Assembly (NCBI GenBank): GCA_001662655.1
Contig: KV460250.1
DNA length: 64,000 nucleotides
Strand: one strand, 5' to 3'
From: Pseudogymnoascus verrucosus
Taxonomy: Eukaryota
Shown here piece after piece: positions 28,510 to 44,050 of the stretch. Every line of letters starts with the position of its first letter. The stretch's first letter is position 1. Made by a program: the position numbers and the translations under genes. A model generated the notes under the pieces. It was not told the DNA's origin and did no database searches. It saw nothing but the letters and a program-made list of their open reading frames with translations.

Positions 28510-30481
28510 CTAAAGTAACCCACCCCAATCCCATACCATTCGTGCCCGGCTATCCAGATTGCTCCTGAGGTCTAATACCTCGACATTAGTGGGCAATTCG
28601 CAACTTTTCGAGCGTGGGAAGTATTGCTCAGCAGCCTTGCCCCTAATAACCTTTAGAGATGGTGTTCTAGGAATCTCCTCTTCGTCTTGCAGAATCCTCA
28701 ACGCAGTTGGGAGCATGAAGGTTGGTAGTGCGCCTCCTAGAGAGTTCCTGAGAACCTCCAGATAGGGCTCTTCTAATCTTTGTACTTTGCCACTATCCCC
28801 CAAATATGTCTTTTCTGGGGTTCGGAGGCGAACAAGAGCTGCGACTATTTGACCATTGCGAGCGTCGGAGGCCTGAAGAATGCAGCCTTCGGAGATGAAC
28901 GGGAGCTGCAGCAAACGCATCTCTACCTCAAGTATCGGCACCCTTAAGCCTTGACAGCGGATGACTGTGAAATATAACCAGTCAATACAATCAAGCTCAC
29001 GGCTCAGACAGCGATTACGCAGGATGGTATCTACTTACAATCGGTAGAGGCTCGTCCTTCTATAATATAGTCACTGCCCACACGACGGGCGAGATCTCCA
29101 GTTTTATAAAATCCATCACTGTCGAATGAAGCAGCCGTTTCCCCGTGGTCATTCAGATAACTAAAATAGTCAGTGGATATTCTTCTCTAATTTGAAGAAC
29201 GGCACCTACTGAGAGAACACGACGGACTTTTTAATTAGCATCTCCCCATGGCTCCCGCTCGAGAGTTTCACGGTAATGCCAGGCATTGGCCTTCCTATAC
29301 AGCGCTTTGAACCCGTTAGTTGGAAGTCCTTTTGTACGCGGAACGATGACAAGAAAGGTCGAATTACCTCAAGGTTTACATCCGTGTCATTAGTGGTTTT
29401 CATTACCGTTGCGCCTAGTTCTGTTATCCCGTAACAGACATGCAGGCGCTTGCCAAGATCTCGCCAGAATTGCAGTACAGACGGTTCGGGCATCGAACCC
29501 CGAGTAAGAGCGTGGCGGAGAGACTGAGCGCCACGAACATATGGGTTGCGCTTTTCCGGTGGAAGGGGGCTTAGGTGGTCTTCAAAATGTCTCATCATCT
29601 GAGTCCAAATACGCGGGGCACAGCCCAAAGTTGTTGCCCCTCCTTCCCTAAGTCGTTCCCAAATAGCCTCAGCATTTTGAGGTATAATCTCAGTTCGTGC
29701 TCCTCCCAGGACGCTGCCGACAAACGTCACCAAACTACTGCCCCAGTGGATAGCGTCGTGGCTCAGGAAGACTTCGCTAGGACTACTTGAGGTGTGGATG
29801 TCATAAAACAGACGTCGTGTGTGCACCACCCCTTTAGGTGGTCCACTCGTGCCCGACGTAAATAGTATCAAGGCAGGACGATGCGGCTCGACCGTCAACT
29901 TCCGGTCAATCTCAAAACAAGGATCTGAATTGGAAAGATCCTCTGAGGGAGGGTTGCTGATGTTGATGGGTAGAACGGGGATGCTTATGCCTTGAGAGGC
30001 GGCATACCCTTGACACTCTTCAGCGAGTTGGAGGTGTTGCTGATCTGCCAAGATGCAGATAGCCCGAGACGTCTGCAGCATATAGAACGCTTCCTCTGGC
30101 AGGAGCGTAGTTGCTTTGAGAAATCTATTAGAACATCTTTTTAGAAGTTGGGCACTTCAAAAGCTCACCTAATGGCGCGAATGCTCCACCAATTGACATA
30201 ATGGACAAAGCTGCTATAATGAACTCATACTTGCCGGACAAGATCAAAATGTATGGGTTTGACACCTGAAGAAGGTTAAGCGCATCGTCAAACATGGACT
30301 CTGGGAGTGATTGTTTTAACAAAAGTTGCATTCGAAGCACGTCGGTAAGCAGCTGGCCGTAATTTGCATCGATTCTATTCTGAGGATCATGGATGATCAC
30401 ATGCTTGATCTCGTTAGCGATCTTGAGTAGATTCACAAAGAAAGGCTCATTTGGCAATCTGCCACGAAGCGCCTTCGCCAT
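28510..30481 (-). CDS. Adenylate-forming (AMP-binding) acyl-CoA synthetase-like enzyme A, 5 exons
   Basis: ILFTSGTSGPPKGVVH, YGITELG, FYKTGDLARR, IIEGRAS, PRTPSLK (catalytic Lys), C-terminal WDWGGLL; four canonical introns. Confidence 0.9.
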
Positions 30482-31095
30482 CCTCAACGAACTGTAACCT
30501 CGCTGTTTAGAATTGGTTGACTTAAAGACCAAAAGACGATTCAGCAATGTAAGTGCGACGAAGTGGTCATAACGTCACATTTGGAGGTTATTGAATAATG
30601 TAGCAATATTCCGTTGGCCCCCCCTGAAATATCAAGGTGTATAGATCCTTTCCGGAATGAGATCAGTGGCGGTGTAAACACAAGCTACGAAGGCTAGTAG
30701 GCCCTCCCTTACAGCCCCAACCGGAGAGGCTCCGGCAAGCCCACTTTGGTTGAGAACTGTGGGTGTCTATCCCGGGGTGAGTGTCTTAGAGCGACTGATA
30801 CATGCGCGCCCGGCCGGCGGTTTGAAATGCAGATCCTACCATAATGCAAAAGTACATGTAACATCGTGGCATGTTAAGACTTTGAGCCGTCCGTAGGCTG
30901 CTGGATCATCCCGCAGTGTATATCGAAAGCCATGGATCTTGAAGGCTTACTCGTGTCATATTTTAGTTGCACTGACAGTTATCTAGAGCCCAGCACCCGC
31001 TTGCCTCCTCCGGGCCCCATTCTCATTACAGTCTTTAACCGATATCCTACGCAATATTTGTGAGGACAACGCCTATTTCTCACCAGATTCCCAAG

Positions 31096-41206: not shown

Positions 41207-42358
41207 TGAGTCGAGCGTGATGACGGGAAGTCTGCGCAGGCGACATGACAACCAAGTTGCAGAAGTGATAAGGATGACGCTTTGAAGAAAGCCGGAGCGG
41301 GAGAATTCAGCAACATTAATAATCCACGCAACTTCGGAAGGATTGCTATCGGGGCTAGAAGATGCAGTTTAGCGTCTGTAGTTTGAGAGGGGAGGGGAGG
41401 CACGGTAGAAAAATAATGCTGGCTGGTTTCTGGGCAGGAAGTTTTTAGAACTTCCTGACTGCATTTCTTGACTGCATCAACTCACGTTCTCGAGTATAGT
41501 TGTCGGCTCTGTTGTACCTGGCCCCTGCTGTATAGCGACAGCCAAAGGCTGCCGAATTGGTTAAGAGCGGCATCCATCGCGACGGCAACCGTTCATCCTT
41601 CTAGGTGATATCCCAAATAAAGTAGTGTTGAACTCGTGATGGAGTTGTCGCTGCAAAAATCCGCGCGTCTCCGCGTGGTGCAAAAAGAGCATTTACATAC
41701 TCATCCCTAAAACGGCACACCCTGGCCAGCTGTACTCCGTACCTCAGTGTACGATGCAATTATAATGTCTCAGAAGCACTCGCCAACGCGCTCCTGACAA
41801 CGCTGCCCGACTATGCTGAGGCGTACAAGCTAGTGCATCCAAAAAGGGGCTCAGGCGCTGAAAACTTACCCACATTTGGTCGGCGATTTCCATCCACTCG
41901 GAACCGATGTGCCACACCCCGTAATTACGTTGGATGACACTGGTTCGGGTGGTGAGAAAAGCGAGGTAGTAGTGGCTTGAAGGCCCGTTTTACTCTGCAT
42001 ACAATTCTAAACGCAGGGTACTTAAAAACGTTTCATTACACCATTCTGTACGTTAGACATTTGCTTTGCTTGTCCCTCTACTATCTTGCGTCCGGAGGTA
42101 GTTGCGTGCCAATGTCTTTGGGCGGCAGAAACATATTTGGCCTGATAAAAACTCCAAACCTCAGTAACCCATCCAGATATTTCGGAAGCCCAACTACCTG
42201 AATCATTACGTCAGGTAAGTACGGAAGTCGTCATTGGCAACCCTGAGGCTTCTCTAAGAAATCTAGATCAGCAATCCTAGCTCTTTTCATCCTAATAGAC
42301 GATATCTAAAAACAAATTATACCATTTCTATTCCTCTCATTGCCAGCTCCCCGTTGCC

Positions 42359-44050
42359 TCAGACGAATCCAAGCAACTTGTACTTCGTCTCCCCGACCTG
42401 GATCCATCCATCGTCAGGTTGGCCCAGAAGAATTCTCCTCTCAGAGAGAAGTTCAGCCCTCTTCTGCTTCATAACAACTTCCTGTTCCTTCTCTCCAAAC
42501 ACTGGAGGATTCCTCCCCTTACCCGATAGGGTGCATTGGCCGGCAAATTTGTAGAGCATTTCCATCCACAGGCGCAATCCACCGTCCTCAACCCCAAGCG
42601 CATGGAAGGTTCGGTTGTTAGCTCTGCTCTCTTCATCTGCCTTTCTCTCCCATTCCACTTGTTCATCAACTGTTGGGAGATCCACTGCGTTACGGCCAGC
42701 AAAGGAGCGGGCCAAAGCAACCGCCTGGTATTCAAAGCTCCGAAAAGTGATGGCACGCTGAATGCCGACAATACCTAGATTAGGGAAGTCTTGAAAGAAT
42801 GTATGTAGATAACTATTAATAAGTTTGTCCCTTTCATAGTCCCACAATGGACGCCCATTGGCTTTAACGTTCCAAAAAGGGTATGAAGGCTGGTAGCCAG
42901 TGCAGTAGATAACTGCATCTACATCATCCAAGTACTCGCCGTTGTCAAATAAGATTCTGCCATTTAGTAGATACTCTGATATCATGGGCCGCTTTTCAAC
43001 TCCTTCTATAGGAATAAGAGCCTTAGGTGCTGATCGCCTGGACATGTAAACTGGAAGCTGGGCCACTGGAACCAGGTCCTTGGCTATTTCAATCGCTGAT
43101 ATCCCGCTGCCGACAACCACGACACGCTGGGAAGTAAAAATGTGAGGTTTTCGGTATGTTTTAGCATGCACTATCCGACCAGGAAACTTTTCAATATACT
43201 CGTTCAATCCCTTAACGTGTGGTATCTGGAACTATGAGTGCTTGTTCAATGGGTAAGGTGTTCAAGGGGGGGTTCGTACATTGGGGATCGAGTAATGCCC
43301 GGTTGCAATGACTACAGCATCGAAGTTTTCTTCCCACCAGATATCAACATCTTGGACGGGTTCGTGCTTTCTTAATACTAGCTTCCACTCTTTGCCCCCC
43401 TTACATGATGGAGATGCAACTTGAGAAAGGTCCTCAACTGTAGTATTGAGTACAAGAAGAGAATCCGTCTGGTGAATTGAAAAGTAGCTCTCTACATATT
43501 GACGGGCGACATGGTGAGGGACAAAAGGACCACGTGGGAAGGCAACATCAGAGAAGCACATGACGACGCTTGGGGTATTGGTCCTGGGCGCCCTGTTAGC
43601 TTCGTCCCGACTCAGCTTCCCCTGCTTGCCTCACATTAACGAGCTATATATTGGCGTCCGTGAGAAACGCTCTTGTCTGTTTGTTGGGGTTACGCAAGGT
43701 AGGATTTTTGGAGCCTCTAACGGAATGTCGACAACTGGAGCTATCGTTCCTGGCGGAACTACAAGACTAGGTCTGACACCGGCATCGAACAACCTAGAAA
43801 GTACGCTGTAAGAAATATGAAGAGTGTCTGCTTGAATATAAAAGCGACTCACCACATGCCTCCGGGTGATTCTCGTCTCTCAAAAATCCGTATCCGGTCA
43901 AAGGATTGTTCAGCTTTAAGGGCTGCCGCTGTAATGGCGCCTAAAATCGTCTATTAGATCAGATGGGTTGTACTGAAATGGCTGGACCGCATTACCAGAC
44001 GCTCCAGCACCGATTACCGCTACGGACTTGATTTTTGGACATCCGGCCAT
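42359..44050 (-). CDS. Class B flavin-containing monooxygenase (FMO, Fmo1/thiol-specific-like), 5 exons
   Basis: FAD motif [34 protein letters not shown] fingerprint [16 protein letters not shown] motif [17 protein letters not shown]. Confidence 0.92.

Follow-up and report, generated by a model that had tools for sequence, protein, structure and literature searches.

What might five adjacent genes do together where no conventional backbone enzyme accompanies them? The question is raised by positions 28510–44050 of the window, the stretch of 64,000 nucleotides of DNA from the cold-soil fungus Pseudogymnoascus verrucosus that we analyzed. There, an earlier note had reported two adenylate-forming (ANL) enzymes, a sulfotransferase, an FMO, and an ABCC transporter, without a PKS, NRPS, terpene cyclase, or transcription factor. 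All five genes are where they had been placed (Table 1) and read as intact and intron-containing, the sulfotransferase being a single exon, and Pfam and profile searches bear out the family assigned to each. The claim of absence also stands, as three Pfam scans of the 64-kb window agree. Domains of those four kinds were found neither in the 18 ORF pieces of the region nor in the 29 ORFs of at least 130 amino acids in the remainder of the window; the 12 small intergenic ORFs matched no Pfam family; and the scans revealed neither a condensing enzyme nor an acyltransferase, regulator, or backbone enzyme in the window. Housekeeping genes make up the flanks, with GC3 values of 0.52–0.78 versus 0.46–0.55 for the genes of the block. 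No 7- to 9-mers are common to the four promoter regions, and random sets of regions share equally many or more.

Table 1. Positions of the genes and boundary elements in the window
Feature	Position	Strand	Description
5S rRNA gene	25794..25913	+	Complete; Rfam RF00001; left outer boundary
Reductase ("Gre2-like")	26492-27636	+	SDR/NAD-dependent epimerase family; Pfam Epimerase
Short low-copy repeat	27833..27913		Inner left boundary of the five-gene block
ANL1	30481..28510	-	OryP/ACSF3-like adenylate-forming enzyme; 5 exons, 576 aa; PF00501
Sulfotransferase	31096-31914	+	Small-molecule type, Sulfotransfer_4 (PF17784); one exon, 272 aa
Palindromic insert	32903..33007		Sulfotransferase–ANL2 spacer; 40-nt arms, 90% complementary
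ANL2	33661-35601	+	AfeA-like adenylate-forming enzyme; 5 exons, 571 aa; PF00501
ABCC transporter	41577..36684	-	MRP/YCF1-like; 6 exons, 1505 aa, full-length; N-terminal extra membrane domain
FMO	44050..42359	-	Class B; 5 exons, 490 aa; PF00743
Right boundary	45288..45462		Short-repeat copy (45288-45359), then 5S fragment (45394-45462)

The ANL1 model, with introns at 30168–30114, 29367–29305, 29209–29161, and 29038–28965, is 100% identical over 576 amino acids to the public P. verrucosus protein VE01_08120. The introns of ANL2 (33977–34026, 34767–34824, 34920–34982, and 35105–35158) lie at positions that parallel those of ANL1. The AMP-binding domain (PF00501) scores 101.8 bits in ANL1 and 72.8 bits in ANL2, which also has an AMP-binding_C match of 42.6 bits. 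ATP, adenylate, and A10-lysine motifs are kept in both proteins (TSGTSGPPKG, YGITELG, YKTGDL, and SLK in ANL1; TSGTTGFPKG, YSVTELG, FKTGDL, and SGK in ANL2). The two are 33% identical to each other, and in a phylogenetic tree the ANL1-type and ANL2-type genes form two deep clades (support 99–100). Judged by these comparisons, they appear to be anciently diverged, separate ligase types.

The sister of ANL1 in the tree is a Cladobotryum protein named oryP (SH-aLRT 100), and its best match outside the genus is KAK5996008 of Cladobotryum mycophilum (55.6% identity over the full length). Its clade also takes in section Flavi proteins, which are about 50% identical, and some ANL1 relatives are annotated beside, fused to, or merged with IucA/IucC–FhuF and ATP-grasp domains. 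OryP is an ACSF3-like enzyme proposed to perform the acid-activating step of oryzine biosynthesis, with octenoic acid as the proposed substrate (PMC6162547). ANL1 is of the same clade and ACSF3-like type as this Aspergillus oryzae enzyme, which belongs to the putative oryzine (maleidride-type) cluster, but the ory cluster has a fatty acid synthase, a citrate synthase, a methylcitrate dehydratase, and others, none of which Pfam detects in the Pseudogymnoascus window. Moreover, the activity of OryP is itself only proposed.

ANL2 falls in its own clade (support 100), which holds proteins named AfeA; its relatives at about 42% identity carry this name by database transfer. By genetic evidence, AfeA is needed for an extracellular sporulation signal; it sits in a conserved pair with a flavoprotein gene and has an essential SGK lysine (PMC4804170). 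ANL2 shares the SGK with AfeA, although it is likened to AfeA via database names and not via the AN0054 sequence. The afeA–tmpA pair of Aspergillus nidulans resembles the block in having an AfeA-type enzyme near a flavoprotein oxidoreductase gene and no backbone synthase. Its product, an extracellular conidiation signal, is secreted and chemically undefined, and may be a parallel to the product of the block. The differences are also clear: TmpA, a membrane flavoprotein, comes from a different family than the class B FMO of the block, and the pair lacks a sulfotransferase, a second ANL, and an ABCC transporter, all of which the block has.

The sulfotransferase matches Sulfotransfer_4 at 210.7 bits (cut-off 22.8) and keeps the 5′-PSB (GxxRTGTxS) and 3′-PB (R..W..S) motifs; an Asp aligns with the D in the TDLP stretch of the schistosome enzymes. 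Profile searches of the PDB returned SgdX2 (1.4e-45), Cpz8 (1.9e-43), and schistosome sulfotransferases (about 1e-40 to 1e-42), and the AF2 model (pLDDT 90) gave target-normalized Foldseek TM-scores of 0.85–0.87 to 8y9p and 9kf1. The modeled fold matches those of PAPS-dependent SgdX2 and Cpz8, from two bacterial antibiotic clusters, and of the drug-activating schistosome enzyme. SgdX2 (sungeidine), Cpz8 (caprazamycin), and the schistosome oxamniquine sulfotransferase, which share fold and PAPS-binding motifs with the fungal protein, are small-molecule O-sulfotransferases; two belong to biosynthetic clusters, and SgdX2 and the schistosome enzyme “activate” their substrates by sulfation, in the wording of PDB entry titles and of the title of Mori et al. 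2024 (via PMC11677658). The fungal protein differs from them in being only 23–30% identical and in having an extra C-terminal hydrophobic helix, which is long and spans residues about 228–271 in the sequence and the AF2 model. Two A. oryzae members of Sulfotransfer_4, LdrG and LdrH, are lipid-droplet proteins according to a preprint (bioRxiv 10.1101/2022.11.24.517872). Relatives at 52–66% identity were found only in Microsporum/Nannizzia, Cladobotryum, A. terreus/A. felis, and two further assemblies, all others being 48% or less identical, a distribution that appears patchy. Distant paralogues (44% identity or less) were examined at 80 metagenome loci, 34 of them at least 8 kb long. No close relative of an ANL, the FMO, or the ABCC protein lies near any of them; two loci had generic ANL matches of 23–24%, and one had ABC nucleotide-binding domains.

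The ABCC protein has Pfam ABC_membrane and ABC_tran domains, an open reading frame, and Walker A, signature, and Walker B motifs in both nucleotide-binding domains. Its best PDB matches are plant ABCC2 (6.5e-68), MRP1, ABCC2–4, and yeast YCF1; the predicted intron 1 holds a 13-nt insertion in strains X3 and X4. The FMO scores 53.6 bits against FMO-like (PF00743), matches 2gv8 and 1vqw best in the PDB (3.5e-31), and contains a 19-residue motif as well as GSGISA. Its relatives, at 45–58% identity, are broadly distributed and are named “thiol-specific monooxygenase.” By sequence, all five genes are intact, with their catalytic motifs kept.

The repeats alluded to in the earlier note exist and are of two kinds: 5S rDNA, present as one gene and one fragment, and a short element of low copy number. 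The left 5S gene (74.2 bits, gathering score 38, model positions 1–120) belongs to a high-copy dispersed family: word depth in its bin (25700–26365) is about 3000–3600 in X3, X4, and X15, versus about 26–35 for single-copy sequence. On the right, 5S rRNA is represented by a reverse-oriented 5′ fragment of 69 nt, in a bin with a depth of 460–600 in the same three strains. This inverted 5S rDNA pair (25786–25854 versus 45394–45462, 94%) brackets six genes, the five plus the reductase. The two short-repeat copies, in direct orientation and 77% alike over 82 nt, bracket the five genes only, and the bin of the left copy has a slight depth excess. Contigs of four of four strains break at the right boundary. 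Draft contigs end at the flanks because of the flanking 5S copies, and the contigs of about 19 kb are therefore no sign of mobility. The palindromic insert looks like a small mobile element; X15 has 21 other letters in place of 32895–33064, and X3 and X4 have a depth excess in that bin. The reductase, whose exon 1 has a weak Epimerase/SDR match (E 1.3e-4), is probably a variable neighbor outside the unit; the earlier note had it as a possible member lying outside the repeats. Only X3 and X4 have contigs over it, positions 26366–27697 being uncovered in X10 and X15, and contig 9 of X15 continues leftward for about 2 kb more in sequence that does not resemble the window.

Within Pseudogymnoascus, the five genes stay together as a block in other strains. 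Contigs of all four compared (X3, X4, X10, and X15), which are closely related and at least 85% alike, cover 28.4–44.9 kb collinearly with the five genes in order, a single contig of 19,102 bp spans 25938–45062, and in four public assemblies of the genus the locus tag of the sulfotransferase directly adjoins that of ANL1. Outside it, where adjacency was read from consecutive accession or locus-tag numbers rather than from DNA, the co-localization of homologues raised in the earlier note holds for ANL1, the sulfotransferase, and ANL2 (three of the five genes). In C. mycophilum (Sordariomycetes), KAK5996008 and the sulfotransferase relative KAK5996010, one of the best matches at 60%, lie two genes apart on the same 5.03-Mb contig, whereas the only Cladobotryum FMO relative listed is on a different, 1.38-Mb contig. 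In Microsporum, ANL1-type and ANL2-type tags are consecutive in four assemblies (007991/007992, 000613/000614, 006433/006434, and 005913/005914), and there are further consecutive accession pairs of the two types. In this comparison of accessions and tags, the ANL1–ANL2–sulfotransferase trio was never seen complete outside Pseudogymnoascus because the dermatophyte sulfotransferase tags are distant from the ANL pair (e.g. 003476 versus 000613/614).

Several explanations could account for such a block. The genes might share no function, being unrelated accessory genes gathered at a variable site flanked by 5S rDNA copies and kept together within one genus by recent common descent alone. The collinearity is indeed confined to closely related strains, the complete set was not found outside the genus, regulator and shared promoter words are missing, and the adjoining reductase is already variable from strain to strain. 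Gene order between fungal classes is largely scrambled, however, and against that background the cross-class adjacencies (ANL1 plus sulfotransferase in Cladobotryum, ANL1-type plus ANL2-type in Microsporum) involve best or near-best relatives; moreover, close relatives of several block genes occur in one and the same small, patchy group of genera. We regard this explanation as somewhat unlikely. Very improbable is a characterized cluster that our searches missed. The earlier note did not recognize the combination as a described cluster, and the literature and database searches run turned up none with this gene set. Open full-text literature gave no paper joining Pseudogymnoascus, gene cluster, and sulfotransferase; the Sulfotransfer_4/PF17784 literature found concerns lipid droplets, polysaccharide sulfotransferases, plants, flukes, and gut bacteria; and close database relatives are “hypothetical” or bear names transferred from OryP, AfeA, and ACSF3.

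All five families have well-known xenobiotic roles, which favors an oxidize–conjugate–export detoxification module, with the FMO in phase I oxidation, sulfotransferase conjugation and ANL activation of xenobiotic acids in phase II, and the ABCC pump in phase III. Animal detoxification uses FMO, SULT, and MRP/ABCC in the same logical order, although those genes are unclustered and the block adds two ANL ligases in a conserved core. Among eukaryotic relatives of the sulfotransferase with solved structures, the closest is the drug-acting schistosome enzyme, the transporter is nearest to conjugate pumps of the MRP1/ABCC2/YCF1 type, the FMO family is broadly distributed, and the block lacks a backbone enzyme or regulator. 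Against this, adjacency of ancient ANL paralogues across fungal classes suggests a defined substrate pair rather than broad detoxification, and amide-forming synthetase domains are found next to ANL1 relatives or fused to them. Furthermore, the characterized or proposed ANL relatives AfeA and OryP (PMC4804170, PMC6162547), like SgdX2 and Cpz8, act in biosynthesis. A detoxification module seems unlikely.

The reading we tentatively prefer, as quite possible, is an accessory metabolic gene block built on a core of ANL1, ANL2, and a PAPS-type sulfotransferase and joined in the genus by the FMO and ABCC genes. That the three genes form the core of an accessory pathway is plausible, with the FMO and transporter as candidate members. 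Fungal clusters that lack a PKS, NRPS, or terpene backbone, such as those for kojic acid and NRPS-independent siderophores, likewise combine a few tailoring-type enzymes with a transporter, and the ANL1 relatives annotated next to or fused with IucA/IucC–FhuF and ATP-grasp domains provide a link to the latter. Unlike this comparison set, the block has no IucA/IucC, ATP-grasp, or cluster-specific regulator in Pfam.

In such an accessory pathway, the five genes would act on one substrate line. ANL1 and ANL2 would each turn a carboxylic acid, probably hydrophobic and either fatty or dicarboxylic, into an acyl-adenylate, and the acyl group would pass to CoA or straight to a nucleophile. The FMO would then oxygenate an N or S atom, and the membrane-anchored sulfotransferase would move sulfate from PAPS onto a hydroxyl, where it could be the final anionic group or a leaving group. 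Finally, the ABCC pump would export the anionic product from the cytosol. By analogy, the relatives of both ANL enzymes lean toward biosynthesis or signaling, and the pathway would make rather than degrade something. The block is probably a small pathway for a secreted compound.

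The block at 28510-44050 holds two adenylating enzymes of the ANL family (ANL1, of the OryP/ACSF3 type, and ANL2, of the AfeA type), a sulfotransferase, an ABCC pump, and a flavin-containing monooxygenase (FMO). An earlier note on this DNA had described these as five intact genes lacking a biosynthetic backbone enzyme or a regulator, and both parts of that observation hold. Gene models built from GT-AG introns of 49–131 nt have open frames and retain the catalytic motifs in all five cases (see table). A Pfam scan of translated frames between 26 and 45 kb returned two AMP-binding domains, Sulfotransfer_4, an ABC transporter, and an FMO-like domain, plus a weak Epimerase/SDR match to the left of the block, and no PKS, NRPS, terpene cyclase, or transcription factor domain was found among 29 large ORFs and 12 small intergenic ORFs. 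The ANL1 model alone of the five is validated, because all 576 of its residues match the public Pseudogymnoascus verrucosus protein VE01_08120 (100% identity). A 13-nt insertion present in two related strains sits within the predicted intron 1 of the pump. Third-position GC is 0.46–0.55 in the five genes versus 0.52–0.78 in 11 flanking coding stretches, a difference that fits accessory or weakly expressed genes and proves nothing.

Coordinates of the genes, motifs, and repeats in and around the block
Feature	Coordinates	Strand	Description
ANL1	30481..28510	-	576 aa, intron-exon model
Sulfotransferase	31096-31914	+	272 aa, intronless
ANL2	33661-35601	+	571 aa, intron-exon model
ABCC pump	41577..36684	-	1505 aa, intron-exon model
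FMO	44050..42359	-	490 aa, intron-exon model
C-terminal motif, ANL1	28510-28560	-	
C-terminal motif, ANL2	35560-35601	+	
Outer repeat pair	25786-25854 and 45394-45462		inverted, 94%; 5S rDNA
Complete 5S rRNA gene	25794-25913	+	Rfam 74.2 bits
5' fragment of 5S, 69 nt	45394-45462	-	19.5 kb from complete 5S gene, inverted
Inner repeat pair	27833-27913 and 45288-45359		direct, 77%; low-copy ~80-nt element

Within the genus, we compared 25700-45650 with contigs from four coded sequencing runs of related strains (X3, X4, X10, and X15), each from a different organism. All four cover 28.4–44.9 kb in the same order: X4 with a single 19,102-bp contig across 25938-45062, X3 with three collinear contigs, X15 with two contigs at roughly 95% identity, and X10 with many small pieces. 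The Gre2-like reductase gene to the left is covered in X3 and X4; in X10 and X15, 26366-27697 is without contig cover, which counts only as a gap. Contig 9 of X15 continues leftward of 28399 for about 2 kb, where its sequence does not resemble the window. A public gene model from strain VKM F-4519 (P0156) fuses ANL1 to a DUF7707/Ser-Thr-rich protein absent from the window, and thus the left neighbor of the block differs among strains. Because gene order is kept in all four runs and cover of the reductase is uneven, we regard the five genes as the unit that is conserved and the reductase as a neighbor that varies. The earlier caution that the reductase may lie outside is in keeping with its cover in X3 and X4 only and with the divergence of X15.

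Elsewhere, this fungal window carries housekeeping genes: NPL4, Sec66, PheRS, carbamoyl-phosphate synthase, Brr2, and a PWWP protein to the left of the block, and an RNA-cyclase-like gene, Sec20, a hydrolase, DUF2417, RFC, DUF1746, Dus, and an aldehyde dehydrogenase to its right. Long open frames at 13591-15186 (-), 5155-5814 (+), and 60448-61311 (+) have no Pfam match, and a tRNA scan of the window found no genes. Self-comparison revealed two short repeat pairs, the inner of which encloses exactly the five genes. A mobile-element origin, Starship-like or transposon, was rejected because no ORF scanned has a recombinase or transposase domain; no terminal repeats of such an element were found, the flanking repeats being 5S rDNA and an 80-nt low-copy element. 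Word depth in the bin of the 5S gene is ~3000–3600, against ~26–35 for single-copy sequence (Logan contigs of related strains), and contigs of those strains break at this bin; this contig depth points to a dispersed 5S family of roughly 100 copies. Because such copies break short-read assemblies, public drafts carry the region on contigs of 18.8–22.8 kb, whose ends are therefore not evidence of mobility. At 45250-45462, the 5S fragment is joined to the ~80-nt element and to CTGCTCACC-type short tandem repeats, and in one strain a contig links 27913 to 45387 with 27 other letters in between. This junction and the make-up of the right end suggest a composite 5S-associated repeat unit. Separately, a palindromic insert (32903-33007; 40-nt arms, 90% complementary) lies between the sulfotransferase and ANL2 genes. 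X15 has 21 other letters in its place, and X3 and X4 have extra depth there; the insert looks like a miniature mobile element.

Both ligases match the AMP-binding family (PF00501), ANL1 at 101.8 bits and ANL2 at 72.8 bits (Pfam cut-off 29.9). ANL enzymes are defined by the motifs A3 (TSGTxGxPKG), A5 (YGxTE), A7 (TGD), and A8 (GRxxD) and by the A10 catalytic lysine. The corresponding stretches are TSGTSGPPKG, YGITELG, YKTGDL, GRASTD, and SLK in ANL1 and TSGTTGFPKG, YSVTELG, FKTGDL, GRANAD, and SGK in ANL2. The two proteins are 33% identical, yet their introns lie at corresponding positions. A PDB sequence search with the 316-aa exon of ANL1 returned no solved relatives at E 1e-8 or better. In a quick maximum-likelihood tree (IQ-TREE, 45 rows), the two types form separate deep clades: one of 7 rows, with support of 99, holds ANL1, and one of 13 rows, with support of 100, holds ANL2. 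Common to both types is a C-terminal extension beyond the A10 lysine that ends in W-D/E-W-G/A-G-L; the pattern W[DEN]W occurs inside the last 22 residues in 24 of the 45 rows, namely the two window ligases and 22 of 43 other relatives. This OryP/AfeA-like subfamily and its motif were delineated in the present analysis and are not a curated family. The conserved motif may serve in this fungal subfamily as a signal for localization or interaction. In some relatives of ANL1, the annotation joins the ligase to IucA/IucC-FhuF or ATP-grasp domains; such fusions may be artifacts of gene-model merging, but the genes would then still be neighbors. Work on Aspergillus AfeA (PMC4804170) reports this ligase at the plasma membrane and in lipid bodies and shows that an extracellular sporulation signal depends on it, via the lysine of its SGK motif; its gene and the flavoprotein gene tmpA form a conserved pair. 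OryP is described as an ACSF3-like ligase with a proposed role in octenoic acid activation (PMC6162547).

The sulfotransferase matches Sulfotransfer_4 (PF17784) at 210.7 bits, against a Pfam cut-off of 22.8. Its AlphaFold (AF2) model has a pLDDT of 90 and is matched by Foldseek to 5tiv, 8y9p, and 9kf1 with a probability of 1.00 and TM-scores (target) of 0.74–0.87, and the protein can be aligned over its full length with SgdX2, Cpz8, and the schistosome oxamniquine sulfotransferases. Across 24 sequences, little or no variation is seen at G27, R30, T31, G32, T33, and S35 or at R121, W126, and S129, and the protein keeps the PAPS-binding motifs, that is, the 5'-PSB loop and the Arg and Ser of the 3'-PB motif. 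Asp-97 is aligned with the Asp of TDLP in the schistosome enzymes, a residue that we take to be the putative catalytic base. Relative to the solved structures, there is an extra long hydrophobic C-terminal helix. Two Aspergillus oryzae Sulfotransfer_4 proteins are lipid-droplet proteins according to a preprint (10.1101/2022.11.24.517872). In the literature searched, we found no substrate for any fungal Sulfotransfer_4 protein.

The open model of the pump contains two ABC_membrane and two ABC_tran regions (Pfam), and both nucleotide-binding domains have Walker A, signature, and Walker B motifs. Its best solved relatives are all ABCC proteins, the closest being ABCC2, MRP1, and YCF1, and the part aligned with ABCC2 starts at ABCC2 residue 224, leaving about 200 residues of the pump N-terminal to it. 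Its predicted architecture is that of a full ABCC (MRP) transporter, TMD0-TMD1-NBD1-TMD2-NBD2. The FMO matches PF00743 at 53.6 bits, and its best PDB matches are 2gv8 and 1vqw (3.5e-31), presumably the fission-yeast FMO. The FxGxxxHxxxY(K/R) motif, the FAD GxGxxG motif, and the NADPH GxGxxG/A motif (as GSGISA) are all present, marking the predicted protein as a class B flavin-containing monooxygenase. Just upstream of the FMO start codon, 355 bases within 44083-44439 are absent from strain X3, with a similar gap in X15 (44300-44476). The promoter region of this gene is polymorphic among strains.

Outside the genus, the co-localization implied by a cluster is found for pairs of the genes. The sulfotransferase search yielded 180 proteins at E 1e-3 or better among 1330 candidates, with identities of 96% in Pseudogymnoascus, 66% in Microsporum, 63% in Nannizzia gypsea, and 60% in Cladobotryum mycophilum. 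An Aspergillus terreus protein is 63% identical over 70% of the length (its 90% cluster includes an Aspergillus felis protein), two further assemblies have relatives at 64% and 52%, and all remaining relatives are at or below 48%. Among the 24 proteins from the ANL1 search, the best from another genus is a Cladobotryum protein named "Acyl-CoA ligase oryP" (55.6%, full length). Locus tags of ANL1 and the sulfotransferase are consecutive in four Pseudogymnoascus assemblies. Their Cladobotryum homologues, KAK5996008 and KAK5996010, lie on the same 5.03-Mb contig and, should accession numbers reflect the order of the genes, would be two genes apart. Because all 23 fungal proteins from the ANL1 search are closer to ANL1 than to ANL2, the 246-aa exon of ANL2 was searched separately against a representative library, giving 1783 matches at E 1e-3 or better, of which 47 reach 1e-30 or better. 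Top matches come from Hirsutella rhossiliensis (64%), Arthroderma sp. PD_2 (53%), and Microsporum (47%), the Arthroderma gene lying on an 18.5-kb contig. Beauveria and Rhizodiscina have proteins at 42% that carry the name "adenylate-forming enzyme AfeA". In Microsporum, genes of the ANL1 and ANL2 types have adjacent tags (McanCB56680_007991/007992, MauCBS54593_000613/000614, MferCBS31731_006434/006433, and MaudCBS49596_005913/005914). Given that the two types form separate deep clades, the pair therefore occurs in two fungal classes.

Several findings, however, argue against a single five-gene unit. The FMO family is broad (209 proteins, with named relatives at 45–58% in many Sordariomycetes and others), and the sole Cladobotryum FMO among the matches listed is on a contig other than that of ANL1 and the sulfotransferase. 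By their locus tags, the sulfotransferase genes of dermatophytes lie well away from the ANL pair. In 80 metagenome loci with distant sulfotransferase paralogues (at or below 44% identity; 34 loci of at least 8 kb), no close ANL, FMO, or ABCC homologue was found nearby; generic ANL matches of 23–24% occur in two loci (L029 and L062) and ABC nucleotide-binding domains in another (L037). On L062, a large metagenome contig, a distant Sulfotransfer_4 homologue (33%) is directly followed by a convergent, generic AMP-binding gene (24% to ANL2) at 10001-11667, an adjacency that may be due to chance. Finally, no 7-, 8-, or 9-mers are common to the four upstream regions of the block, and 200 of 200 random region sets had at least as many. 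The cluster interpretation of the earlier note is thus partly supported: co-localization is seen for ANL1 with the sulfotransferase in Cladobotryum and for ANL1 with ANL2 in Microsporum, but not for the FMO in Cladobotryum or for the sulfotransferase in dermatophytes.

The most likely reading, which we put forward tentatively and at somewhat less than an even chance, is that the block is a small accessory pathway in which the two ligases and the sulfotransferase are an old core and the FMO and pump are lineage-specific additions. In such a pathway, the ligases would activate carboxylic acids, the FMO would oxygenate a heteroatom, the sulfotransferase would add a sulfate that either stays as the final group or acts as a leaving group, and the pump would export the anionic product. 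A less likely alternative is that these are accessory genes brought together by chance. The detoxification module that the earlier note had also entertained seems unlikely. It is very unlikely that the block is an already known cluster missed by our literature search, as no description of this gene set was found in the open full-text literature, in line with the earlier note, which did not recognize the combination as a described cluster. A bolder and rather improbable extension of the accessory pathway is that the core trio is a horizontally spreading, backbone-free module making a sulfated or sulfate-activated acyl compound, secreted as a signal or weapon and chemically related to the AfeA-TmpA sporulation signal, with the FMO and ABCC pump recruited in Pseudogymnoascus.

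We therefore consider the block a candidate backbone-free fungal gene cluster. If the genes are unrelated neighbors, the finding is an ordinary one. If they form one pathway, the block would exemplify fungal small-molecule biosynthesis of a kind outside the search scope of the usual backbone-based cluster finders. Such a pathway would also provide a first substrate context for fungal Sulfotransfer_4 proteins and for OryP/AfeA-like ANLs, one member of which controls a developmental signal in Aspergillus, and its patchy presence in Pseudogymnoascus, dermatophytes, and the mycoparasitic Cladobotryum would raise the question of gene transfer.
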